From positions 11,355 to 75,354 of the forward strand of contig JAGPNG010000005.1 of NCBI GenBank assembly GCA_018052475.1: a DNA stretch of 64,000 nucleotides, written 5' to 3'. Shown in pieces: positions 27,234 to 61,995 of this stretch. The translations under genes were made by a program, and so were the position numbers. Positions within the stretch are counted from its first letter, which is position 1. Every line of letters starts with the position of its first letter. The notes below the pieces were generated by a model, which did no database searches, was not told the DNA's origin, and saw nothing but the letters and a program-made list of their open reading frames with translations. The DNA comes from Candidatus Fermentithermobacillaceae bacterium. Lineage in GTDB: Bacteria; Bacillota; Sulfobacillia; Fermentithermobacillales; Fermentithermobacillaceae.

Positions 27234-27503
27234 TACAAAAATTGGCCGTGCACTTATCTCCGAACGTCCTCCCCAGGCGGTACCGGCGTAGCCGGCTCCA
27301 GTCAGGAATCCCTGCGGCACATGAGAAAATCCGCTTACCGCTGCTTCCTCCCGGACCTGACGGGGTTCACGGGCTCTCATTGCGCAGGACCCAACCTTCA
27401 ACGCTACCCGCGCCAGCCAGACCCTAAAGAGGAGCGCCCTCGGATAAGCTTCAACCCCGCTATAGCGGATTGCGGGTTACAGGGCACCGCTATCTCCCCG
27501 TCT
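27234..27503 (-). ncRNA. ffs: signal recognition particle RNA, long Bacillus-type (scRNA/ffs, ~270 nt, with Alu domain)
   Basis: The minus-strand sequence contains the domain IV motif GTCAGGTCCGGGAGGAAGCAGCGG and the Alu-domain motif GCGGTGCCCTGTAACCCGCAATCCGCT. Its 5' GGCCGTGC pairs with its 3' GCACGGCC. It sits immediately upstream of dnaX, as scr does in B. subtilis. Confidence 0.85.
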
Positions 27504-27551
27504 AGCACGGCCAAACTTCAAACCCAAAGCGAGTTTCAAAAGACACTGATA

Positions 27552-27641
27552 TGGCGGAGGGAGTGGGATTTGAACCCACGAGACGCTTACGCGTCTACAC
27601 GCTCTCCAGGCGTGCTCCTTCAGCCGCTCGGACATCCCTCC
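27552..27641 (-). tRNA. tRNA-Ser (anticodon GGA)
   Basis: Cloverleaf with long variable arm, anticodon loop CTGGAGA, T-loop GGTTCAAATCC and 3' CCA encoded. Confidence 0.85.
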
Positions 27642-27679
27642 ATGTACACATGAACCTCGCCTTATTATACCAACTGCTC

Positions 27680-27769
27680 TGGCGGAGGGGGTGGGATTCG
27701 AACCCACGAGGCGCTCACACGCCTACCCGCTTTCGAGGCGGGCTCGTTCAACCGCTCCGACACCCCTCC
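27680..27769 (-). tRNA. tRNA-Ser (anticodon CGA)
   Basis: Anticodon stem-loop cccgc-CTCGAAA-gcggg, long variable arm and GGTTCGAATCC T-loop. CCA encoded. Confidence 0.85.
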
Positions 27770-27786
27770 CCTTAAGGAGTGGACAG

Positions 27787-28218
27787 CTAAAACCTAAGGC
27801 CGCGAAAAAACGACTCTAGGAGTTCTCGACACTCTCTTTCCATCACACCGAACTTTATCTCAACTTGGTGGTTTAGTCTCGGATCCGAGACTATGTTCCA
27901 CAAAGAGCCGCAAGCCCCTGTTTTAGGATCTTTAGTCCCTATAACCAATCTGGGGATCCTCGCCATAACGATGGCGCCTGCGCACATGGGACACGGCTCC
28001 AATGTAACGTACATAGTAGACTCCAATACTCGCCAACCTGTAACGTTCCGCGCAGCTTCGCGTATGGCCATCATTTCAGCATGTGCTGTCGGATCGCCCA
28101 ACGTCTCCTTCAGATTGTGCCCTCTGCCTACAACCGTGCCTTCTTTTAGGATTACTGCGCCAACCGGCACCTCGCCTAGGCAATACGCTTTGCGGGCTTC
28201 AACAAGGGCCATCTCCAT
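27787..28218 (-). CDS. tadA: tRNA-specific adenosine deaminase (the ORF could extend to 28293)
   Basis: CDA zinc motifs HAEMMAI and PCPMCAGAI. It lies next to tRNA-Arg(ACG), its substrate. Confidence 0.88.
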   Translation of the reverse strand: MEMALVEARKAYCLGEVPVGAVILKEGTVVGRGHNLKETLGDPTAHAEMMAIREAARNVTGWRVLESTMYVTLEPCPMCAGAIVMARIPRLVIGTKDPKTGACGSLWNIVSDPRLNHQVEIKFGVMERECRELLESFFRGLRF

Positions 28219-28297
28219 CCCGTAGAGATCGTAGCAATCTGCCCTCGAAAATTCGTCCAACTCGATAAACCACCATTCAAACCCGTCTATCAAAATC

Positions 28298-28376
28298 TGG
28301 TGCGCCCGGGAGGACTCGAACCTCCGGCTGACGGGGATTAGGAATCCCCCGCTCTGTCCACCTGAGCTACGGGCGC
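28298..28376 (-). tRNA. tRNA-Arg (anticodon CCT)
   Basis: Anticodon loop TTCCTAA in a gggga/tcccc stem, GTTCGAGTCC T-loop. CCA encoded. Confidence 0.85.
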
Positions 28377-28427
28377 ATCGTCAGAAACCTATAATCACCA
28401 GTGTGTCTTCCCACCACCGAAAACAAG

Positions 28428-28504
28428 TGGTGCGCCTGGCGGGATTTGAACCCACAACCTACAGATCCGTAGTCTGTCGCTCTATCCAATTGAGCTACAG
28501 GCGC
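28428..28504 (-). tRNA. tRNA-Arg (anticodon ACG)
   Basis: 77 nt. D-arm GCTCAATTGGATAGAGC, anticodon loop CTACGGA, T-loop GGTTCAAATCC. CCA encoded. Confidence 0.9.
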
Positions 28505-28534
28505 GAGATAAAATCCGTGGCGTTGGTCCTTAGG

Positions 28535-28624
28535 TGGCGGAGAGGGAGGGATTCGAACCCTCGAAGGGGGTTACCCCTTAACGGTTTAGCAAACCGTCGC
28601 CCTCGGCCTCTAGGCGACCTCTCC
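28535..28624 (-). tRNA. tRNA-Ser (anticodon GCT)
   Basis: Anticodon stem-loop acggt-TTGCTAA-accgt, long variable arm. CCA encoded. Confidence 0.85.
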
Positions 28625-28680
28625 GCAGAATAAAGGGCCTCGCCCTTTAGATATTATCACGTCTTCCTATGGGATGCTAG

Positions 28681-28771
28681 TGGCGGAGGGGGTGGGATTC
28701 GAACCCACGGAGGGCTATGAACCCTCAACGGTTTTCAAGACCGCCGCATTCAACCGCTCTGCCACCCCTCC
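28681..28771 (-). tRNA. tRNA-Ser (anticodon TGA)
   Basis: Anticodon loop CTTGAAA, long variable arm, GGTTCGAATCC T-loop. CCA encoded. Confidence 0.85.
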
Positions 28772-50156: not shown

Positions 50157-50678
50157 TGCCCCGTTCCTCCTAACCGTGCTGCTAAAAATAGCCCTTGCGA
50201 TCTACCGAATTATATCTTAGCAATTAGAAAAGTGTCAATAAACCCCGTTCTTACTGGTATTTCTCTAGCATCAACAGTATATTTCCTCCTAATCCAGACA
50301 GATTTCACCACAGTTTTGCCGTTGCGACTTCTGATTTCCCTTGATATAGTCCTATTGAAATGTCATTTCGCTTTTGACAATCGCTCTTACCGCCGTAAAA
50401 CATATCCACACCTGTGGATATGTATGTGCATAACTTGTGAGCTTGTTATACGAATGACACGAGCACGAGTTTTGGACGCGAAAGGGTTGTTCATACTAAC
50501 AAAGCCGCAGTCTTCCTAGTTCGGAACATATTCGTTGATGTATAAGGCCGATTACCGTGGGGTTTTGTTAGATATACTCATCTTTACGCTGTGGTAGGTT
50601 AGATGAGTTTGCAGTGTTGCAGTTTCAAAAAAGGCTTAGAATAAAGAAGAACCGAAAAAATGGTAGGTGAGTTGTAGC
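50157..50678. promoter_or_regulatory. oriC region, rpmH-dnaA intergenic part, containing an inverted pair of DnaA boxes ATATCCACA-cc-TGTGGATAT (50402-50420) and the dnaA promoter region
   Basis: Perfect 9-bp inverted repeat in which each half matches the DnaA box consensus TTATCCACA at 8/9 positions. Confidence 0.6.
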
Positions 50679-52049
50679 ATGAGCAAAGATCTTGACGAGC
50701 TCTGGGATGACACACTTTCCAGAGCTTCTCTGAATTTCTCAAATCCAGGGTTCATCCAAAGTTGGCTTAAAGATACGAAGCCTACCGAGCTAACCGAAAA
50801 CATTCTTACCATTGCCGTTCCGAGCGAATTTGCGAAAAACTGGATTGAAACCCGATATAAAGAGGAACTATATAAAGCATGGGAAGAAGTATATGGGGCG
50901 GCATTGGAGATCCAATTCACAGTTGCTCAGCCCGCTAGACTTGTTCCGGAGACTCTGTTCCCACAAGATGGCAGTAACTCCTTTTCGCAGAAGAAACGTC
51001 CTCAAGAGGATAGGGTAGCCCAGATCAGGCACCTCAACCCAAGATATGTGTTTGAAAACTTCATCGTAGGAACCTCGAATAGGTTTGCACATGCTGCGTC
51101 ATTGGCTGTAGCCGAAAGCCCTTCTAAGGCATACAATCCGCTTTTTCTCTATGGAGGAGTAGGACTTGGTAAGACACACTTAATGCAAGCTATCGCTCAG
51201 TATGTATTTATGCATCACAACAACCTAAAAATCTGTTACGTTTCTTCTGAGGCTTTTACTAACGAACTTATTCTTGCAATCCAGGAAGGTAGAACACCAG
51301 AATTCAGAAACAGATATCGAAGTGCCGATGTACTCTTAGTAGACGACATTCAGTTTGTGGCCGGTAAGGACGCCACACAGGAAGAATTCTTCCACACGTT
51401 CGATGCACTTCACCAATCATCCAAGCAGATAGTAATCTCTTCAGATAGACCGCCGAAAGAAATCGCCACTTTGGAAGAAAGACTACGCACTCGATTCGAA
51501 TGGGGGCTTATCTGTGACATACAACCGCCTGACCTTGAAACACGTATAGCCATTCTCCGCAAAAAAGCCGAGTTAGAAGGAAGAGAAGTTCCTCTTGAAG
51601 TGTGTGAATACATAGCAGAAAACATCACCACGAACATCAGAGAGTTAGAAGGGGCCCTAATTCGCGTGTTGGCCTATACATCTCTAAACAGCAAAGAGGT
51701 AACCTTAGCTACCACTCAGGAAGTTTTGCGAGACCTACTTCCAGAAAAAAAAGTGACACCTGTGACTCTCAGAGGAATACAAGAAGCGGTAGCTGCTCAC
51801 TACAAAATAGGGCTCAGTGATTTTTCAAGTAAGAAACGCACGCGTAGCATCGCATTTCCAAGGCAGGTAGCGATGTATCTTTGCAGAAAACTCACAGACC
51901 TTTCCCTTCCTCAGATAGGTACAGCGTTTGGTGGCAGAGATCATACCACTGTATTACACGCTTGTTCGAAAATCGAATCGGAAATGGGCTCCAGCCCAGA
52001 CCTTGCGCGTACAATAGAGGAATTAACCAAGACAATCAGAGAAGGTTAA
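50679..52049 (+). CDS. dnaA: chromosomal replication initiator protein DnaA
   Basis: AAA+ Walker A GGVGLGKTHL and domain IV IGTAFGGRDHTTVLHA. Start at ATG 50679 (MSKDLDELW) with a GGTAGGTGAG SD. Confidence 0.93.
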   Translation: MSKDLDELWDDTLSRASLNFSNPGFIQSWLKDTKPTELTENILTIAVPSEFAKNWIETRYKEELYKAWEEVYGAALEIQFTVAQPARLVPETLFPQDGSNSFSQKKRPQEDRVAQIRHLNPRYVFENFIVGTSNRFAHAASLAVAESPSKAYNPLFLYGGVGLGKTHLMQAIAQYVFMHHNNLKICYVSSEAFTNELILAIQEGRTPEFRNRYRSADVLLVDDIQFVAGKDATQEEFFHTFDALHQSSKQIVISSDRPPKEIATLEERLRTRFEWGLICDIQPPDLETRIAILRKKAELEGREVPLEVCEYIAENITTNIRELEGALIRVLAYTSLNSKEVTLATTQEVLRDLLPEKKVTPVTLRGIQEAVAAHYKIGLSDFSSKKRTRSIAFPRQVAMYLCRKLTDLSLPQIGTAFGGRDHTTVLHACSKIESEMGSSPDLARTIEELTKTIREG

Positions 52050-52348
52050 AAACGTCTCTGTGCAGAATTATGTGGATAGACATAGGATTACTTGTGGAGG
52101 AGTTGTGTACAAGATGACCAGCGCCGGATTTTCTTCTTCTTATCCAGATCTCTTCACAATCCGTACACATCTCCATCCACAGAGAAGATCCACAAGTTTC
52201 ATAGGAGAGAGATACATCTTCCACAAATTCACACCCTCTATTACTACTACTGTTTTTGAGATATACACATCAATAATAGATAAGGAAGGTATTTTTCTTG
52301 TGCAAACTTCACAAGAACGAGAATTGATAACGATAGGGAGGCCTATAT
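52050..52348. promoter_or_regulatory. oriC region, dnaA-dnaN intergenic part: cluster of DnaA-box-like 9-mers (TGTGGATAg 52071, TTATCCAGA 52139, cATCCACAg 52174, gATCCACAA 52188, TTCCACAAA 52219) followed by an AT-rich unwinding element (about 52251-52300)
   Basis: Box motifs read directly from the sequence. The AT-rich run ATATACACATCAATAATAGATAAGGAAGGTATTTTT lies just upstream of dnaN, as in Firmicutes oriC. Confidence 0.65.
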
Positions 52349-53485
52349 ATGCATTTCACCATACCTAAGGAAAAACTAGCATGGCTTCTTCAAACAGCAT
52401 CACGTCCCATACCGGCACGTAGTACCTTACCGTCTCTAAAGGGTTGCCTTATTGAAGCCCTTTCAGACAGAGTAATCTTCTCCGGTACAAACCTCGATTG
52501 GGGAGTAAAGGTGTCGTCAGAGGCAGACGTACTTTCTTCGGGATCGCTTGTGGTGTCCTCCAAGATCTTGGAGGACATAGTAAGGACTATTTCGTTGCCT
52601 GAGGTTACTCTTTCGCTAGATGAATCAGCGTGGGCTCTTACTGTGAAAGCGGGCAATTCAGAAATAGTCCTCAACGCAGTGCCGGCGGAAGATTTTCCAA
52701 AGTGGCCGGAACCTCCTGGCAAGGAAAGCATATCTCTGAAAGATAAGATCTTCAAAGAACTGGTAAGAGTTGGTTCAACCTGCGCAGTCACTAATCCGGC
52801 AAGACCCCTTTGGGGTGCATGCCTTATAGATCTGCTGGGTGATAGAATTGTCCTTGTGAGTACGGACCAGTTTGCCCTGTCTCAAGCTCAGATACGAGCC
52901 AATGTTCCGAAGGCACGCGCTATTGTTCCCGCAAACGTGCTTCAAGATATTTCAAGGCTTAAAGATGTGGATGATGGCGATGAAATCTCATTGGAGCTTG
53001 CAGGAGGTTATCTCTACCTCTCAGGAAAGAACTTTTCTAGTTTTAGCAGATTGATTGAAGGACAGTACTACGCATATGATCAAGTTATTCCAAAATCATG
53101 TGCCTCTAGCGCTAAGGTGACAACCAGCGAGATAGCGGGTGCGGCTTCTCGGGCTGCGATCGTCGCTAGTGAAGAGGATAGAGCGATGAGGATTATTCTT
53201 GATAAAACTAATCAGACAGTGACAGTGAAAGCAGCTTCACCCGAAAAAGGGAAAATGGAAGAAGTGCTGCCGGCTTCGGTGACTGGGGAAGACGTAGAGA
53301 TTTGGGTGCAGCACAAGTATGTTATTCAAGCATTAAGCAGGATCAGTGACGAAGAAGTGTCTCTTGGAATGACTGGGCAAGTTAGCCCAATGGTTATTGA
53401 GCCGGTGAGGAAGGAAACACCCTCCCAAGACTCGGTTCTATCTACGTTTGTGATTATGCCTATGAGTCCTAAAGGAGCCTTTTAG
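52349..53485 (+). CDS. dnaN: DNA polymerase III beta sliding clamp
   Basis: 378 aa with three-domain clamp architecture. MHFTIPKEKL N-terminus. Confidence 0.92.
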   Translation: MHFTIPKEKLAWLLQTASRPIPARSTLPSLKGCLIEALSDRVIFSGTNLDWGVKVSSEADVLSSGSLVVSSKILEDIVRTISLPEVTLSLDESAWALTVKAGNSEIVLNAVPAEDFPKWPEPPGKESISLKDKIFKELVRVGSTCAVTNPARPLWGACLIDLLGDRIVLVSTDQFALSQAQIRANVPKARAIVPANVLQDISRLKDVDDGDEISLELAGGYLYLSGKNFSSFSRLIEGQYYAYDQVIPKSCASSAKVTTSEIAGAASRAAIVASEEDRAMRIILDKTNQTVTVKAASPEKGKMEEVLPASVTGEDVEIWVQHKYVIQALSRISDEEVSLGMTGQVSPMVIEPVRKETPSQDSVLSTFVIMPMSPKGAF

Positions 53486-53488
53486 ATA

Positions 53489-54595
53489 GTGCGGTTTTCT
53501 TTTGTCTATTTGAACAATTTCCGCAACTATCGGAAATTGGAACTTGAGATACCCAAGGGTGCGTCACTTTTTATAGGGAAAAACGCCCAGGGCAAGACAA
53601 ACTTGCTTGAGGCTTTTTATTATCTTTCTTCCCTCAGTTCACCAAGATCTGAGAAAGAATCAGACCTAGCATATTGGGGAGAAACGTCTTTTTCCGTAGG
53701 TGCCAGACTCGAAGAGGCTGGAGCCACCAACACGATTGAAGTAGAAACGCGGGTTATCCCATCAGTTCGGCGAACCATCCGCATAAACGACCGAGCTGCG
53801 AAGAGACAGGAGCTTCTGTCGATATGTCCATGTGTTTACTTCTCACCTGACGATCTTTACATAGCAAAAGGCAGTTCGAGTGTGAGACGCTCCTTTATGG
53901 ATTCCCTTCTTTCAAGACAAGATCCTGTTTATTCACGGCAGTTGTCACGGTATAATAGCACGGTCTCGCGGCGTAATATGGTTCTAAAGAGAGCGAATCA
54001 AGATCCTTCGTGGGCGAAGAGTCTCGATAGTATAGATGAGCTTTTGATAAATATTGGGTCTGAGATCATCGAGAAGCGTTCGATATTGGCCGAGAAGTTA
54101 GATACACTGGTTAAGGAAAGCTACAGACTTATGTCTATGGATGGTTGCGAGATACGATATATATCTACCATAGGTGATATCCCAGACGGTATAACTGGTA
54201 TTCGCGAGGAGTTCTCAACCAAACTAAAAAGCGTTTCCAAGGAAGAGCGTGCTCGGGGTATAACTTTAATGGGTCCTCATAGAGACGAGTTACTTCTATC
54301 GTTCCACGGCAAGACTTTCCGCTACTTCGGTTCTCAGGGTCAGCAACGAAGCGTTGTGCTTGGGCTCAAAATGGCAGAGGCGCATATTCTAGAAGAAACT
54401 TTTAACACGAAGCCTGTTCTCTTATTGGACGATGTGCTTTCTGAGCTTGACTCTGACAGAAGGACAAAAGTCGTCTCTTTGTGTGACATGGGGTATCAGA
54501 TCCTTATGACTTCGACTGAGGCTTCCGGAGTAGACCAGTCTAGATTCTCTAGGTTCGTAGTGGAAAACGGTACTTTATACACCGAGGTACTATAA
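53489..54595 (+). CDS. recF: DNA replication and repair protein RecF
   Basis: NFRNY motif, Walker A GKNAQGKTN, and signature/Walker B LLLDDVLSELD. GTG start overlaps the dnaN end. Confidence 0.92.
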   Translation: MRFSFVYLNNFRNYRKLELEIPKGASLFIGKNAQGKTNLLEAFYYLSSLSSPRSEKESDLAYWGETSFSVGARLEEAGATNTIEVETRVIPSVRRTIRINDRAAKRQELLSICPCVYFSPDDLYIAKGSSSVRRSFMDSLLSRQDPVYSRQLSRYNSTVSRRNMVLKRANQDPSWAKSLDSIDELLINIGSEIIEKRSILAEKLDTLVKESYRLMSMDGCEIRYISTIGDIPDGITGIREEFSTKLKSVSKEERARGITLMGPHRDELLLSFHGKTFRYFGSQGQQRSVVLGLKMAEAHILEETFNTKPVLLLDDVLSELDSDRRTKVVSLCDMGYQILMTSTEASGVDQSRFSRFVVENGTLYTEVL

Positions 54596-54611
54596 AGATT
54601 GGAGCCATTAC

Positions 54612-55556
54612 ATGCGGCCACCTGAACCAGTTGATTCTGTAATAGAAAAAGTTCTGAGCGGCATGGATCTTCTGACCCAGACTAGAAGGTATCAGATATT
54701 CTATTACTGGCCGAAGATAATGGGGGATATCAGCGATCACGCTAAACCGCGGCGCATCGATGGTGACGTCTTGTATGTAGCGACGTCATCGTCTACATGG
54801 GCGCAAGAACTAACCATGATGAAAAGGGATATCATTAAAAAAATAGAGAGCACTTTAGGCGGAAAGTACATAAATGACATCTATTTCTCGGAGCATCTTT
54901 GGGGCACGACGGAAACTGAGAACAGCTTATCTGCCCAGAACGGGGCTTTGGAAAGAGATTTCTATTATAAAGAGTACAAAGCATTCAAATCGAAGAACGT
55001 CTCTCGCGTAAAGAAAGAATTGGCGCAATTGCAGGCATCAGAAGTCCTCCAAAATGATCCAAGATTGTCCTTGACTTTCCAGAAGTTTACTGTTACTATG
55101 AATATTAGGCAAGAGTATCTTTTGCAGCAGGGTTATAAGAAATGCCCTGTCTGCGGATATTTATATAATCCTAAAAAGGTGTGTCCCCACTGCAGAAATG
55201 CCCGGGAATACGAGAACCATCAGCGAATATTATCTATCCTTAAGCACCATCCTGAGATATCGGATGACGGTCTGTCCAAAGCTACAGGGATCGCTGATAG
55301 ACTTCAATTTGAGAGAGCTCGCGGAGAATTCGACTCCAAGTTGCAGGATATGGTGACAAATGGGGTGTTCAAAGCAATATCCGGGTCCTTGTCTAAGGAG
55401 GAAAAAGATCAGCTCCGAGATTCGGTGCAAGACCTACTAAAGCTTCGTACTGGCAAGACCGTGCAGAACTTGACCGAAGGAGAGATAAAAGAAGCCATCG
55501 GGAAGAGGCTTTTTCAGCTGATCAAAAGAGCCGGGGTGAATATTAATAATCATTAA
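54612..55556 (+). CDS. DUF721 (DciA/RemB/YaaB-like) domain protein with a ~200-aa C-terminal extension containing a CxxC...CxxC zinc ribbon
   Basis: The N-terminal 100 aa (RRYQIFYYWPKIMGD...GDVLYVATSSSTWAQELTMMKRDI) match the DUF721 core found between recF and gyrB. The extension has CPVCGYLYNPKKVCPHCRN and a charged helical tail. Confidence 0.7.
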   Translation: MRPPEPVDSVIEKVLSGMDLLTQTRRYQIFYYWPKIMGDISDHAKPRRIDGDVLYVATSSSTWAQELTMMKRDIIKKIESTLGGKYINDIYFSEHLWGTTETENSLSAQNGALERDFYYKEYKAFKSKNVSRVKKELAQLQASEVLQNDPRLSLTFQKFTVTMNIRQEYLLQQGYKKCPVCGYLYNPKKVCPHCRNAREYENHQRILSILKHHPEISDDGLSKATGIADRLQFERARGEFDSKLQDMVTNGVFKAISGSLSKEEKDQLRDSVQDLLKLRTGKTVQNLTEGEIKEAIGKRLFQLIKRAGVNINNH

Positions 55557-55655
55557 ATGATAACAATCCTGCAATTCCAAGCGATCATTTGATGTCAGCC
55601 TGCATTTTAGCGAACATGGATTCCCGGCGTGAACTGTGCTAACATCTAGAAGTGA

Positions 55656-57599
<1,944 letters not shown>

Positions 57600-57615: not shown

Positions 57616-60045
57616 ATGACAGACACTGCTCAGAAAATAGTTGTAGCACCAATAGAAGAAGAGATGAAACGCTCTTACATTGACTATTCTATGAGCGTTA
57701 TCGTCTCTAGAGCTCTTCCTGATGTGCGTGATGGTCTAAAGCCTGTTCAGCGAAGGATCATCTATTCCATGAATGAGCTTGGTGTAAGACACGATAAGCC
57801 GCACAAAAAATGTGCCAGGCTTGTAGGAGAGGCCATGGGAAAATACCATCCCCATGGCGATCAAGCGATCTACGACGCTCTTGCAAGAATGGCGCAACCT
57901 TTCAACATGCGGTATCCCCTTGTAGATGGGCACGGCAACTTTGGTTCAGTTGACGGAGATCCACCGGCTGCCATGCGTTACACTGAAGCAAGACTAACAG
58001 CGATAGCAGAGGAACTTCTCGTGGATTTGGACAAAGAAACGGTTGACTTTGTGCCAAACTTCGACGATTCACTCAAGGAACCAGCGGTGCTACCTTCCCG
58101 AATTCCAAACCTACTCGTAAATGGATCAGCCGGAATTGCTGTAGGTATGGCAACAAACATACCGCCGCATAATCTAAATGAAACGATAGATGCACTGGTT
58201 GCGTTAATTGAAAATCCGGACCTGAGTTCCCTCGAGCTTATGAAGCATATTAAAGGACCCGACTTTCCCACGGGCGGTCTAATAGTTGGGCTGGAACCCG
58301 TAAGGTCCTTATATACTACAGGCCGGGGAATCATGAAGGTCCGAGCCAAGGCCCGGATCGAGAAAGAAAAAACAGGAAAGCAATTAATAATTGTAGATGA
58401 GCTTCCATATCAGGTGAACAAGGCCAAGTTGATAGAAAACATAGCCGAGCTTGTGCGGGAGAAAAAAATCCAAGGTATTGCTGATTTAAGAGATGAAAGC
58501 GACAAAAGTGGACTAAGGATAGTTGTCGAGGTAAGGAAAGATGTCGATGCCAAAGTAGTGCTGAACCAACTTTTCAAGCATACTTCCATGGAAGTTAGCT
58601 TCGGGGGTATAATGCTTGCCCTGGTGAATGGGCGGCCTGAAGTGTTAACACTCAGAGATATGCTCTTTCACTACATATCGCACAGGGAAGAGGTTGTTAC
58701 CCGCCGCACTAGATACGAACTTAGGAAAGCCGAAGAAAGAGCTCATATTCTAGCCGGACTGGAGATAGCCCTCGCCAACCTCGATGAAGTGATTGCCATA
58801 ATAAGGCAGTCGGCAGATGGGCAAGAGGCAAGAGAAAGACTGATGGGAAGGTTCAATCTCGACGAGATACAAGCAAAAGCTATCCTGGATATGAGGCTCG
58901 AACGGTTAACAAGCCTCGAGAGAGATAAGATCATCGAAGAACGGCGAGCATTACTTAAAGAAATTGAGTATTTAAGAGCCGTCCTGAGTTCAGAAAAAAT
59001 GATACTAGGCATCGTCAAACAAGAATTGGAGGATGTCAAGGCAAAATACGGAGATCCTCGTCGTACCCGTATTTTGGCAAAAGCTGAAGAAATTCAAGAC
59101 GAAGATCTCATAGTTGAACAAGAAGTATCTGTAATTTTGACCGGCATGGGATACATCAAGCGCATGCCCCTAGATGTCTATAGGAATCAACGAAGGGGTG
59201 GATTTGGCTCTACGGCTATGCAGACACGAGACGAGGATTGGGTGGAGAAAGTAGTCTCCACAACCACCCGGGATTCTCTACTCCTATTTACTTCGCACGG
59301 TAAGGCGTACTCACTCAGAGTTTTTGATATACCCGAAGCTGGTAAACAGGCCAAAGGGCACCTTTTGTCCAGGCTTGTTGCGCTAGACAAAGATGAAAAG
59401 GTGACCGCGCTCATCCCGATTCCTTCCGACCCGGAAAATGCCGGGGACTTGTTCTTTGTCACCAAATATGGCATGTGCAAAAGAACGCCGTTTGCGGAAT
59501 ACTCGAGGCCTAGGAAGACGGGTCTCAAAGCGATAAACCTAAAGAAAGGTGATTCCCTCATCCTAGCTCGACTTGTTGAAGACGGGGATCAAGTTCTGAT
59601 TGGAACTTCTATGGGCAAAGGCCTCAGAATGCAAGTCGATGACGTTAGGCCCATGGGCAGGACCGCTACAGGAGTGATAGGGATAAGGCTTGAAGATGAC
59701 GACTATGTCATAGGCGCAGACCCTGTTGCTCCGGATTCCAATGTGCTGCTCGTAAGCGAATTTGGGTACGGTAAGATAACAAAAGCTTCAGACTTCCCTC
59801 TTCAGAAACGCGGGGGGAAAGGAGTCATAGCCCTCAAAGTAACTGAAAAGAGCGGTCGGCTAGCTATAATGCGAGTAGTCTCGTCAAAGGCAGAGGAGGC
59901 TTTGCTCGTTACTGCAGAAGGGATAGCAATTCGGATCAGGCTATCGGAGGTCAAGATCAGCCGCCGAGCAAATCTAGGCGTTCGTCTGATGAAGATAGAA
60001 CCGGAAGATAGGTTGAGTGCATGTAGCATTATTGAAGGAGAATGA
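57616..60045 (+). CDS. gyrA: DNA gyrase subunit A
   Basis: Active-site Tyr region ([10 protein letters not shown]) and GyrA-box/beta-pinwheel repeats. 809 aa. Confidence 0.93.
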
Positions 60046-60054
60046 CCCCATGGG

Positions 60055-60489
60055 GTAGGTTTCGAGATCATAAGCCATGTCGCAGATGTCACGGTCAAAG
60101 CCTGGGGAACTTGCCTATCGGATGTGTTTGTCCAGATCTCAAAGGGTATGTGGTCACTTATACTAGGCGACCACATTGTTCCTTGTAAGAGAAAATGGAT
60201 CATCGAAACATATGCCATGGATATAGAGGAACTCTTGGTTAATTTCCTCAACGAACAGATTCTACTTCTAGAAGTAAAGGGGCTAGCTGTCTCTGACATT
60301 GAGGAGATCGTCATAGAGCAAGTAGGTACATCGGAGAGCGCTTCAGGATGTGAGTTTCACCTAAGGTCAACTATGTTGGGTAGCCGTATATCTGAAGTGA
60401 CTATCGAACCCGAGATCCAGGTTAAGGCAGCCACTTTTTACGAAATTGAGGTCAGCCCTACACATGCCCAAGTCACCTTTGACGTCTAG
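60055..60489 (+). CDS. archease (RtcB activator); the conserved N-terminus GFEIISHVADV is in frame from 60055 but there is no in-frame canonical start, and a well-placed ATG at 60050 is 1 nt out of frame
   Basis: Archease N-terminal motif FE.I.H.ADV.V.A.G..L. The ORF track only calls it from GTG 60124, which would delete that motif. It lies upstream of rtcB, as expected for archease. Confidence 0.6.
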   Translation, partial: VGFEIISHVADVTVKAWGTCLSDVFVQISKGMWSLILGDHIVPCKRKWIIETYAMDIEELLVNFLNEQILLLEVKGLAVSDIEEIVIEQVGTSESASGCEFHLRSTMLGSRISEVTIEPEIQVKAATFYEIEVSPTHAQVTFDV

Positions 60490-60531: not shown

Positions 60532-61995
60532 TTGAGGGGAGTGGTACTTGTGGGCACAGATTTGCAGTTGGTTCCCGGACAAAAGTGCCATTGGGTGATG
60601 CGTAAGCACGACGGCATGAAAGTGGATGGCATCGTCTTTGCAACCGACGAAATCATCCAAGATCTAACAGGCACCAAAGCCTTATCGCAGGTAAAAAATG
60701 TTGCATACCTGCCGGGGATCCTCAAGGCATCTCTTGCCATGCCTGATATCCACGAAGGCTACGGATTTCCAATTGGGGGCGTCGCGGCGACGGACCTTGA
60801 GGAAGGCGTGATTAGTCCCGGAGGAATAGGGTATGATATCAACTGTGGCGTCCGCCTGATGGTCTCGCATCTATCAAAGCCCAATCTAGATGGTCATATG
60901 GATGATCTGGTGGAAGAGCTTTTTTCATCAATACCATCAGGTTTAGGCAAGACTGGGGCCATAAGACTGTCCAAGGCTGAGCTTTCAAAAGTTCTAACGC
61001 AAGGGGCAAAATGGGCTGTTACTAACGGATATGGATGGCCCGAAGATTTGGAATACTGCGAAGAGAAAGGATGCATGGATGGTGCCGATCCTAAAAACGT
61101 AACTGAGCGCGCGTTTTCTCGCGGCGCAGGGGGATTGGGGACTCTGGGCTCGGGAAACCATTTCATTGAAGTAAGTTACGTTGAACGGATCTATGATGAA
61201 AACGCGGCTGAGGCATTTGGCCTTTTTGAGAATCAAGTCGTCTTCTGGGTACATTCTGGTTCTCGGGGTTTGGGCCACCAAGTCTGTACCGACTATCTAA
61301 ACATAATGAGAAGAGCCGTTTCTAAGTATGGGATCTCCCTTCCCGATAGGCAATTGGATTGTGCGCCAACTATGTCTGATGAAGGGAAACGGTACTTTTC
61401 GGCCATGGCCGCAGCGGCCAATTATGCCTGGGCAAACAGGCAGGTCCTAACTCATTATGTTCGAGAAGCCACAGCTAAGACTTTGGGAAAGAGCGCTGAG
61501 GAATTGGGCATGCACTTAATGTATGATGTAGCTCACAATATTGGTAAGATAGAAGAACATAACATTGACGGAAAGAAGAAAAAGGTGCTTGTGCACCGAA
61601 AAGGGGCTACTCGAGCATTTGGCCCCAACCATCCGGATATCCCTCGCAAATACGCAGAAGTAGGTCAGCCAGTCTTGGTTCCCGGAGATATGGGCAGAGC
61701 TTCTTACGTGCTTAAGGGTTCGAAGAGAGCCATGGAGTTTTCTTTTGGGTCTGCATGCCATGGTGCCGGAAGGGCTCTTTCGAGGACACAAGCGAAAAAA
61801 GGGATTTCGGCTGACGAATTGCGGAAGGACCTTAAGCGTTCGGGTGTCATAGTTAGATCTGCCACGACGAAGGGTTTGGTTGAAGAAGCTCCGGAGGCGT
61901 ACAAAGATGTTGACGTAGTTGTAGAAGCTACGGCTTGCGCAGGTTTGGCGGACAAGGTAGCCCGTCTGCGCCCCATGGGAGTGATCAAAGGATAA
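60532..61995 (+). CDS. rtcB: RNA-splicing ligase RtcB (3'-phosphate/5'-hydroxyl RNA ligase)
   Basis: Metal-binding motifs MPDIHEGYGFPIGGVAA, GSGNHF and HNIG. 487 aa, so no intein. Confidence 0.92.
   Translation: MRGVVLVGTDLQLVPGQKCHWVMRKHDGMKVDGIVFATDEIIQDLTGTKALSQVKNVAYLPGILKASLAMPDIHEGYGFPIGGVAATDLEEGVISPGGIGYDINCGVRLMVSHLSKPNLDGHMDDLVEELFSSIPSGLGKTGAIRLSKAELSKVLTQGAKWAVTNGYGWPEDLEYCEEKGCMDGADPKNVTERAFSRGAGGLGTLGSGNHFIEVSYVERIYDENAAEAFGLFENQVVFWVHSGSRGLGHQVCTDYLNIMRRAVSKYGISLPDRQLDCAPTMSDEGKRYFSAMAAAANYAWANRQVLTHYVREATAKTLGKSAEELGMHLMYDVAHNIGKIEEHNIDGKKKKVLVHRKGATRAFGPNHPDIPRKYAEVGQPVLVPGDMGRASYVLKGSKRAMEFSFGSACHGAGRALSRTQAKKGISADELRKDLKRSGVIVRSATTKGLVEEAPEAYKDVDVVVEATACAGLADKVARLRPMGVIKG

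Follow-up and report, generated by a model that had tools for sequence, protein, structure and literature searches.

An archease gene lies between gyrA and the RNA ligase gene rtcB in the stretch of DNA analysed here (the window), which comprises 64,000 nucleotides (nt) of contig JAGPNG010000005.1 from a Candidatus Fermentithermobacillaceae bacterium. Comparison of this junction with its counterparts in related genomes leads us to propose, with a probability of roughly 0.65, that the archease is expressed by a selected and obligatory −1 ribosomal frameshift at its second codon. The features of the junction, all on the plus strand, are as follows.

57616 to 60045, plus strand: gyrA, 809 amino acids (aa), with the Pfam domains DNA_topoisoIV and DNA_gyraseA_C and the stop codon TGA at 60043 to 60045.
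60034 to 60042, plus strand: Shine-Dalgarno sequence (SD) GAAGGAGAA, core AGGAG at 60036 to 60040.
60050 to 60052, plus strand: zero-frame start codon ATG (GTG in the L012 lineage) of a two-codon zero-frame open reading frame (ORF).
60052 to 60055, plus strand: putative slippery run G_GGG, with the zero-frame Gly codon at 60053 to 60055 and the −1-frame Gly codon at 60052 to 60054.
60056 to 60058, plus strand: zero-frame stop TAG directly 3′ of the proposed shift codon (a 'shifty stop'), invariant in the clade.
60055 to 60489, plus strand: archease frame after the proposed shift (GTA GGT TTC GAG ... GTC TAG), Pfam PF01951.
60067 to 60072, plus strand: in-frame ATC ATA (Ile7, Ile8), candidate non-canonical starts, with GGGGTAGGT (60052 to 60060) as the would-be SD.
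60124 to 60126, plus strand: GTG, the first canonical in-frame start and the choice of gene callers, giving a 121-aa product.
60550 to 61995, plus strand: rtcB RNA ligase, 481 aa from GTG 60550, Pfam RtcB (E = 1e-178).

The 3′ end of gyrA reads ...ATT GAA GGA GAA TGA, and the SD of the next gene lies within its GAA GGA GAA codons. Four bases separate the gyrA stop from the ATG at 60050 to 60052, which is followed by GGG (60053 to 60055) and TAG (60056 to 60058). Read from 60046, the −1 frame, which in the window is also the gyrA frame, gives PHGVGFEIISHVADVTVKAWG... (that is, PHGVGFEIISHVADVTVKAWGTCLSDVFVQISK...) and ends at TAG 60487 to 60489. It contains no ATG, GTG or TTG upstream of GTG 60124, where the ORF listing begins the gene; the original prediction had reported both this absence and the reading ATG GGG TAG, and its coordinates were all correct. 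In the window and in the L002 lineage, the archease frame from the upstream stop to 60058 has neither a canonical nor a near-cognate start (its junction codons are CCC CAT GGG GTA GGT in the window and CCT GAT GGG GTA GGC in L002). The predicted duplex of the SD of ATG 60050 with a Bacillota-type anti-SD has an energy of −9.5 kcal/mol, comparable to those of neighbouring genuine starts, while the SD of GTG 60124 is weak (predicted −5.5 kcal/mol). The original prediction had placed an SD 10 nt upstream of the ATG; measured from its AGGAG core, the distance is 9 nt to the ATG and 11 nt to the first G of the run. As there is no in-frame start, and an ATG or GTG one base out of frame is well served, a −1 shift is the economical reading.

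The −1 frame encodes a complete archease. Translated from 60046, its residues 6–147 match the whole of Pfam PF01951 (profile positions 1–136 of 136, E = 8.3e-23), which bears out the claim that the full N-terminus is encoded from about 60055. The archease domain begins at the Phe codon at 60061, upstream of every canonical start, and about 20 residues of bona fide archease precede the first of these. The product of the shift is predicted to be a 146-aa protein, MGVGFEIISHVADVTVKAWG...TFDV. Its match to NCBIfam PRK00407 (60 bits) is under the cut-off (126 bits), which makes it a divergent member of the family. A profile match in the PDB to Pyrococcus horikoshii archease (4n2p) starts from F5. 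With an alignment of 23 sequences, AlphaFold2 gave a model with a predicted local distance difference test score (pLDDT) of 93.6 and a first β-strand spanning G4–S9; with the single sequence only, pLDDT was 34.7 and the model useless. The best Foldseek matches of the former were the archeases 4n2p, 8odo, 8btx and 1jw3, with template modelling (TM) scores of 0.72–0.82 (0.81 against 4n2p).

His10, Asp13 and the terminal pair Asp145-Val146 are invariant in the four lineages described below. In a profile alignment, His10 and Asp13 align with His9 and Asp12 of P. horikoshii archease, which are required for RtcB activation, their substitution abolishing it (PMC3973293). Asp145-Val146 can be likened to P. 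horikoshii Asp141-Ile142 as a terminal Asp-X pair, the hidden Markov model alignment itself stopping before the C-terminus. For a product to carry these residues, translation would have to begin upstream of 60076. The 121-aa product of GTG 60124 lacks both, and would therefore be inactive. The adjacent rtcB is intact, and its ligase is the enzyme that this archease would activate.

The original prediction had pointed to orthologous loci as a check, and these proved informative. A protein search for close relatives returned only four clusters, all N-terminally truncated by gene callers. The DNA of the loci was therefore taken from retrieval of the encoding contigs, a scan of GTDB species representatives and a metagenome scan, covering samples from ENA, JGI, NCBI and Logan. 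More than 30 contigs from independent samples, falling into four lineages of Candidatus Fermentithermobacillaceae, carry [A/G]TG GGG TAG G with the archease in the −1 frame. The four junction types are:

window type: GGAGAATGACCCC ATG GGG TAG GTTTCGAGATC
L001 type: GGAGAATGACCCT ATG GGG TAG GTTTCGAGATC
L002 type: GGAGAATAGCCTG ATG GGG TAG GCTTCGAGATC
L012 type: GGAGAATAA-AAA GTG GGG TAG GTTTTGAAATA

The run is four G in every one of these contigs and five in none. A sequencing or assembly error in the homopolymer, hiding a true run of five, had been offered as one cause, and G runs are error-prone on some platforms; however, the same G4 recurs across different projects, assemblers and lineages, and the real low-coverage breaks that we did see (in contigs L027 and L039) fall at other, unshared positions. 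Phase variation, also suggested originally, is excluded, the length of the run never varying in the four lineages. The two broken loci just mentioned are on sister-lineage contigs of about 3× coverage (L027, 571 to 2998; L039, 690 to 1160), in which gyrA is split into three ORFs and the archease is broken mid-gene. In a further contig, from a GTDB representative metagenome-assembled genome (L018, JAPXKJ010000031.1), the gyrA–archease junction occurs twice (at 2772 and 2999), with N runs between the two copies, which is a scaffolding or assembly duplication and not biology.

Conservation at the junction is sharply confined. The nine bases TGGGGTAGG are invariant across lineages, and the base before them is A or G, so that a start codon is preserved (ATG, ATG, ATG and GTG in the four lineages). 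The four bases immediately 5′ of the start codon are different in each (CCCC, CCCT, CCTG and -AAA, the last with an indel), and position 60049 shows all four nucleotides. Further upstream, GGAG is again invariant, with a spacing of 10–11 nt to the G run. The gyrA stop varies by lineage (TGA, TAG or TAA). In the L012 lineage the 1-nt indel leaves the archease and gyrA in different frames, that of gyrA leading into the TAG of the cassette; the −1 relation of the archease to GTG GGG TAG is kept.

These differences bear directly on a fusion of archease to GyrA by readthrough of the gyrA stop, another cause that had been put forward. In the window the archease frame is indeed the gyrA frame across a single TGA, but this relation is not conserved in the relatives: neither the identity of the stop nor, in L012, the frame itself is maintained. 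Together with the possibility of a sequencing artefact, readthrough can for practical purposes be discounted.

The lineages are sufficiently diverged for the conservation of the cassette to be meaningful. Among them, identity is 86–96% for GyrA, 83–96% for RtcB (rtcB being intact in the lineages that bear the frameshift) and 52–90% for archease. Fourfold-degenerate sites of gyrA and rtcB combined are identical at 51.5% between the window and L002 and at 30.5% between the window and L012, and 16.8% are invariant across three deep lineages; by this measure such sites are evidently near saturation. Elsewhere in the operon, intergenic spacers can hardly be aligned between lineages, whereas the gene order gyrB–gyrA–archease–rtcB–methylthioadenosine (MTA) phosphorylase–mtnA is identical in all related loci. 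Position 60057, a fourfold-degenerate site when GTA is read as Val in the archease frame, never varies. That four diverged lineages have all retained the cassette in the same place is, on this comparative evidence, not neutral. The motif RTGGGGTAG itself occurs three times in the window against 0.68 expected, and it is in the comparative sense only, as the same site kept in four lineages, that its presence is far beyond chance. One of the three matches is in gyrB (56040 to 56050), where the 11-mer of the archease junction, CATGGGGTAGG, recurs as in-frame codons for HGVG in the ATPase motif (GLHGVGVS); this copy appears to be a coincidence.

Searches with the archease profile, genome and metagenome scans and RtcB homologues found no frameshift-bearing lineage beyond these four. 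The next relatives recovered by archease-profile and RtcB-based searches, also Fermentithermobacillaceae, have archeases of 44–45% identity and RtcB of 77% or less. In these sister lineages the archease starts in the ordinary way, either 2 nt after the gyrA stop or overlapping it, with the N-termini MTQGF, MQKGF, VSRGF, MPAGF, MSMAKGF and MSMQEGF. The shifted product, MGVGF..., has the same N-terminal length and the same Gly-Phe as sister proteins of the form M-x-x-G-F. Residues 2–3 are hypervariable in seven sister-lineage loci (TQ, QK, SR, PA and others) and are fixed at the nucleotide level as GGG GTA in the clade with the cassette, an invariance with a chance of about 2e-5 if unconstrained. 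The simplest history would be a single loss of one base from a start of the type ATG GGG GTA GGT in the common ancestor of the clade, followed by retention.

Substitutions within the gene indicate that the region upstream of GTG 60124 is translated. Over codons 3–25, from the cassette to the first canonical start of the window, the ratio of non-synonymous to synonymous substitution rates (dN/dS) was 0.02–0.4 (Fisher p from 3e-7 to 0.011), and it was below 1 for the archease frame. Codons 3–25, among which are those for His10 and Asp13, are thus, by this comparison, under purifying selection, which argues against the inactivating frameshift that the original prediction had entertained. Codons 4–6 (GGT TTC GAG) each vary among the lineages, in third positions only and synonymously only (GGC, TTT, GAA). 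In codons 2–3 the third positions never change; they would be free as far as the protein is concerned, but the G run and the TAG depend on them. G4-F5 corresponds to a G-[FY] at the same position in most of the aligned normal archeases and in all of the closest ones. The coding-type pattern of codons 4–6 and this homology together place the start of archease-frame translation upstream of 60058.

The same data speak to the idea that the gene is truncated or decaying, so that a short protein is made from a downstream start such as GTG 60124, or RtcB acts by itself for want of a functional archease. Gene callers do yield proteins of 117–133 aa, and some RtcB enzymes work without archease (PMC10630183). 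The downstream starts, however, are at different positions in each lineage, the region upstream of them is under purifying selection, and the short product from GTG 60124 is the one that lacks the essential His and Asp. The entire archease ORF has, moreover, stayed open while synonymous sites became saturated. We regard truncation or decay as scarcely probable.

The main surviving rival is initiation at a non-canonical codon within the archease frame, at AUC 60067 (AUA in L012) or AUA 60070, with GGGGUAGGU (60052 to 60060) as the SD. Such a start might be supplied by ribosomes fresh from termination on the Met-Gly mini-ORF, and its product, (M)ISHVADV..., would keep His10 and Asp13 and lack G4-F5-E6. 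GGGGUAGGU stands 6 nt from the AUH codon (H being A, C or U), and its anti-SD duplex is predicted at −8.1 kcal/mol, with values of −7.3 to −9.3 in the relatives. Ile7 is AUH in all lineages, but as Ile is only encoded by AUH this conservation is uninformative. The NCBI Prokaryotic Genome Annotation Pipeline (PGAP) picked ATA for the L012-type gene, and in E. coli reporters an AUA 7 nt downstream of G_GG.G supported a low level of initiation (PMC4066793). AUA and AUC initiate at about 0.02–3% of the level of AUG in E. coli (10.1101/063800).

The codons upstream of Ile7 fit this rival poorly. Codons 4–6 are constrained at positions 1 and 2 and free only at position 3, and the conservation of TT and GA there has a probability of about 8e-4 if they belong to an untranslated spacer. 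The Gly-Phe upstream of Ile7 has its homologue in the G-[FY] of most aligned normal archeases, and the first strand of the model spans G4–S9. Initiation at Ile7 or Ile8 also leaves unexplained the conserved RTG two codons before the TAG and the −1 relation that stays fixed across an upstream indel, and a strong SD and AUG 17 nt upstream would occlude the site. Overall, we consider initiation at AUH unlikely to be the route of expression, and both routes could contribute.

A −1 frameshift at codon 2 would account for the start codon, the run and the stop together. The geometry of SD and start suggests that ribosomes would bind to the AGGAG in the last codons of gyrA, or would re-initiate after terminating on gyrA, and would start at AUG 60050. 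As read from the sequence, a single translocation would then leave fMet-Gly-tRNA-Gly in the P site on GGG 60053 to 60055 with UAG in the A site. On the model of SD-stimulated −1 shifts and of 'shifty stops', the tRNA-Gly would in some ribosomes re-pair with GGG 60052 to 60054, with the initiation SD:anti-SD helix, 10–11 nt upstream and still intact, acting as the −1 stimulator and the stop codon supplying the pause in place of a 3′ structure. GUA 60055 to 60057 would thereby enter the A site and be read as Val, and translation would run on through the 146-aa archease MGVGFEIISHVADV...; those ribosomes that keep the zero frame would terminate and release Met-Gly, the sole product of that frame. 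The N-terminal peptide that would mark the shifted product is (M)GVGFEIISHVADVTVK.

Several properties of the cassette are consistent with these steps. G_GGG permits fully cognate re-pairing of tRNA-Gly one base back, as the codon is GGG in both frames. In SD-stimulated −1 shifts the SD is 9–14 nt upstream, the SD:anti-SD helix persists through 5–7 nt of translation, and there is a precedent, in one insertion sequence (IS) element, for a single SD serving both initiation and frameshifting (PMC5009743). The spacing here falls inside the published range, and the SD would thus be suitably placed to stimulate the shift. A −1 slip of tRNA-Gly on G-GGG with TAG in the A site had been one of the causes listed in the original prediction, and it is the one that the comparative evidence favours, its support being sequence comparison. 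Insertion of one G would restore a normal gene, yet none is found in any lineage, which argues for selection of the shifted state over simple tolerance of it. The comparative data show that the cassette has been conserved, that the codons following it are translated in the archease frame, and that the arrangement has not reverted.

Correction at the RNA level would share part of this explanation. If polymerase slippage or another RNA event added one G to the run, some transcripts would read AUG GGG GUA GGU and be translated normally. Both MGVGFEI as the product and the conservation of the G run and ATG would be expected in this case too. Such correction needs no TAG, however, and so leaves the invariant fourfold site at 60057 unexplained. 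Productive transcriptional slippage also needs much longer homopolymers, typically of at least 7 A or T. We therefore think RNA-level correction very unlikely.

Some observations weigh against frameshifting. No conserved or stable stimulatory RNA structure was found downstream: the folds differ in three lineages, with folding z-scores of +2.1 (the window, worse than shuffled sequences), +0.5 and −1.75. A 3′ hairpin or pseudoknot is not obligatory for this class of −1 frameshift, and the stop codon may substitute for one. G_GG.G was not detectably shifty in E. coli reporters, where the signal was ascribed to SD-like initiation at the downstream AUA (PMC4066793, Sharma et al.); unlike the archease cassette, those constructs had no stop right after the motif and no SD 10 nt upstream. 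GGGGTAGGT has real anti-SD complementarity, with in-frame ATC and ATA at a suitable spacing. Finally, the known cases are limited to four lineages of a single clade and a single origin, and the statistics rest on few substitutions.

The shift could serve to fix archease output at a low level, or to make it respond to the status of termination or elongation. A specific, and in our view doubtful, version of the latter is that the cassette is a translational sensor, in which the shift competes with termination at UAG, dependent on release factor 1 (RF1), after a single peptide bond. Were this so, archease output, and hence multiple-turnover repair by RtcB, would increase under impaired termination or elongation (through RF1 shortage or damaged tRNA or rRNA, for instance), and the RNA-repair module would gain a feedback input from the state of the translation machinery. 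No zero-frame ORF shorter than its Met-Gly would then be known from a programmed frameshift, and the cassette would be an RF1/UAG counterpart of the RF2/UGA logic of prfB.

Other readings of the junction were tried and rejected. TAG is not a sense codon (encoding pyrrolysine, for example): the ATG frame meets TAA five codons on, and TAG ends both the archease itself and the gyrA of L002. A +1 shift from ATG 60042, in an ATGA overlap with the gyrA stop, fails as this ATG is absent in L002 and L012 and its ORF has no Pfam match; the 48-aa third-frame ORF from this ATG (60042 to 60188) is probably not a gene. The palindrome CCCCATGGGG was rejected as a structure, as it is not conserved (CCCT, CCTG and AAAG in relatives). 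An Rfam search at the archease locus gave no match.

The annotation of the archease differs by lineage: 133 aa from GTG, 121 aa, 117 aa, and 133 aa from ATA (PGAP). The last is the L012-lineage gene (contigs L012–L015, 3001 to 3402; protein P0004). No annotation captures the conserved archease N-terminus. As every gene caller mis-annotates the archease, pipelines blind to homology would rate these anaerobic-digester Bacillota as having a defective RNA-repair module.

The start of rtcB is ambiguous. The ORF listing has TTG 60532 (487 aa; SD −6.4 kcal/mol), and the alternative is GTG 60550 (481 aa), with the SD GAGGGGAG at −12.3 kcal/mol; in two near-identical contigs the call is GTG in one (L016) and TTG in the other (L017). 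The archease–rtcB pair stands directly behind gyrBA in the origin region. The window has an origin-type gene order from 50667 to 57599 (dnaA, an unassigned 102-aa ORF, dnaN, recF, a 314-aa protein, gyrB and gyrA), in which the 102-aa ORF (52060 to 52368) overlaps the dnaN start and the 314-aa protein upstream of gyrB has a DciA domain at its N-terminus. Among sigma-70-like promoter matches in the region, the best (CTGAAA-16-TATAAT, 10/12, 59843 to 59870) falls within the 3′-terminal part of gyrA, some 180 nt before the archease start; the number of such matches in the region is not above shuffled expectation. Elsewhere in the window, a large bacterial signal recognition particle RNA (27246 to 27510, minus strand) adjoins a cluster of six tRNA genes (four Ser, two Arg), the whole lying within 27246 to 28771, and there is no tRNA-Gly gene within the 64 kb.

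If confirmed, this would be a case of a bacterial gene that is cellular, not part of a mobile element, and able to yield a functional product only by a −1 shift at codon 2; the archease:RtcB RNA-repair pair would thereby come under translational control. The cassette, of about 25 nt, would also be a minimal system for how freshly initiated ribosomes hold or lose their frame. Its interest is limited by a narrow phylogenetic range, and it is relevant to recoding specialists and to the annotation of RNA repair. A search of titles and abstracts on archease and frameshifting returned no report of archease recoding, and a review of recoding (PMC5009743) does not mention archease. The combination of a two-codon zero-frame ORF, an initiation SD as the stimulator and a stop replacing the 3′ structure is not among the described bacterial recoding sites that we found.

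Several known systems resemble parts of this arrangement. The archease–RtcB RNA-repair operons of P. horikoshii and human likewise have archease directly upstream of rtcB, and the fold, the N-terminal His/Asp and the C-terminal Asp-X are kept here; in contrast, the present pair stands directly behind gyrBA and, in the reading we propose, the gene requires recoding. Non-AUG initiation, as in infC and IS911 OrfB, is similar in that an in-frame AUH follows a purine-rich SD-like element at a suitable spacing, but the coding signature of the archease extends upstream of the AUH. In the 'savior indels' of herpes simplex thymidine kinase mutants (G7/G8), a 1-nt indel in a G run is likewise offset by low-level frameshifting within that run, which yields a little full-length protein (PMC5009743). 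Those are recent, drug-selected and unconserved, whereas the archease state has been kept through synonymous saturation together with an adjacent start and stop.

The −1 shifts of dnaX and IS elements (A_AAA_AAG, SD 9–14 nt upstream; PMC5009743) share with the archease an upstream SD at a matching distance. Theirs is tandem slippage on a heptamer with A/U-rich shift codons, usually with a 3′ hairpin or pseudoknot, and gives two useful products, whereas the archease would use a single tRNA on a G_GGG tetramer, a stop codon instead of a 3′ structure, and an unshifted product of only Met-Gly. As in prfB, a short zero-frame ORF comes early and the functional protein lies wholly in the new frame; both would also involve the slip of a single P-site tRNA with a stop in the A site, an SD:anti-SD stimulator and conservation across species (PMC5009743). 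The prfB shift is +1 (CUU_UGA_C), with the SD at 3 nt and at codon 26, whereas that of archease would be −1, with the SD at 10–11 nt and at codon 2. The prfB stop is read by the gene's own product, which gives autoregulation, whereas the archease stop is UAG, specific to RF1, and no autoregulatory loop is evident; for RF1 genes themselves no UAG/RF1 counterpart is known (PMC5009743). By analogy, then, the archease cassette seems closest in its logic to prfB, with the direction of the shift reversed, an SD spacing like that of dnaX, and no autoregulatory link.

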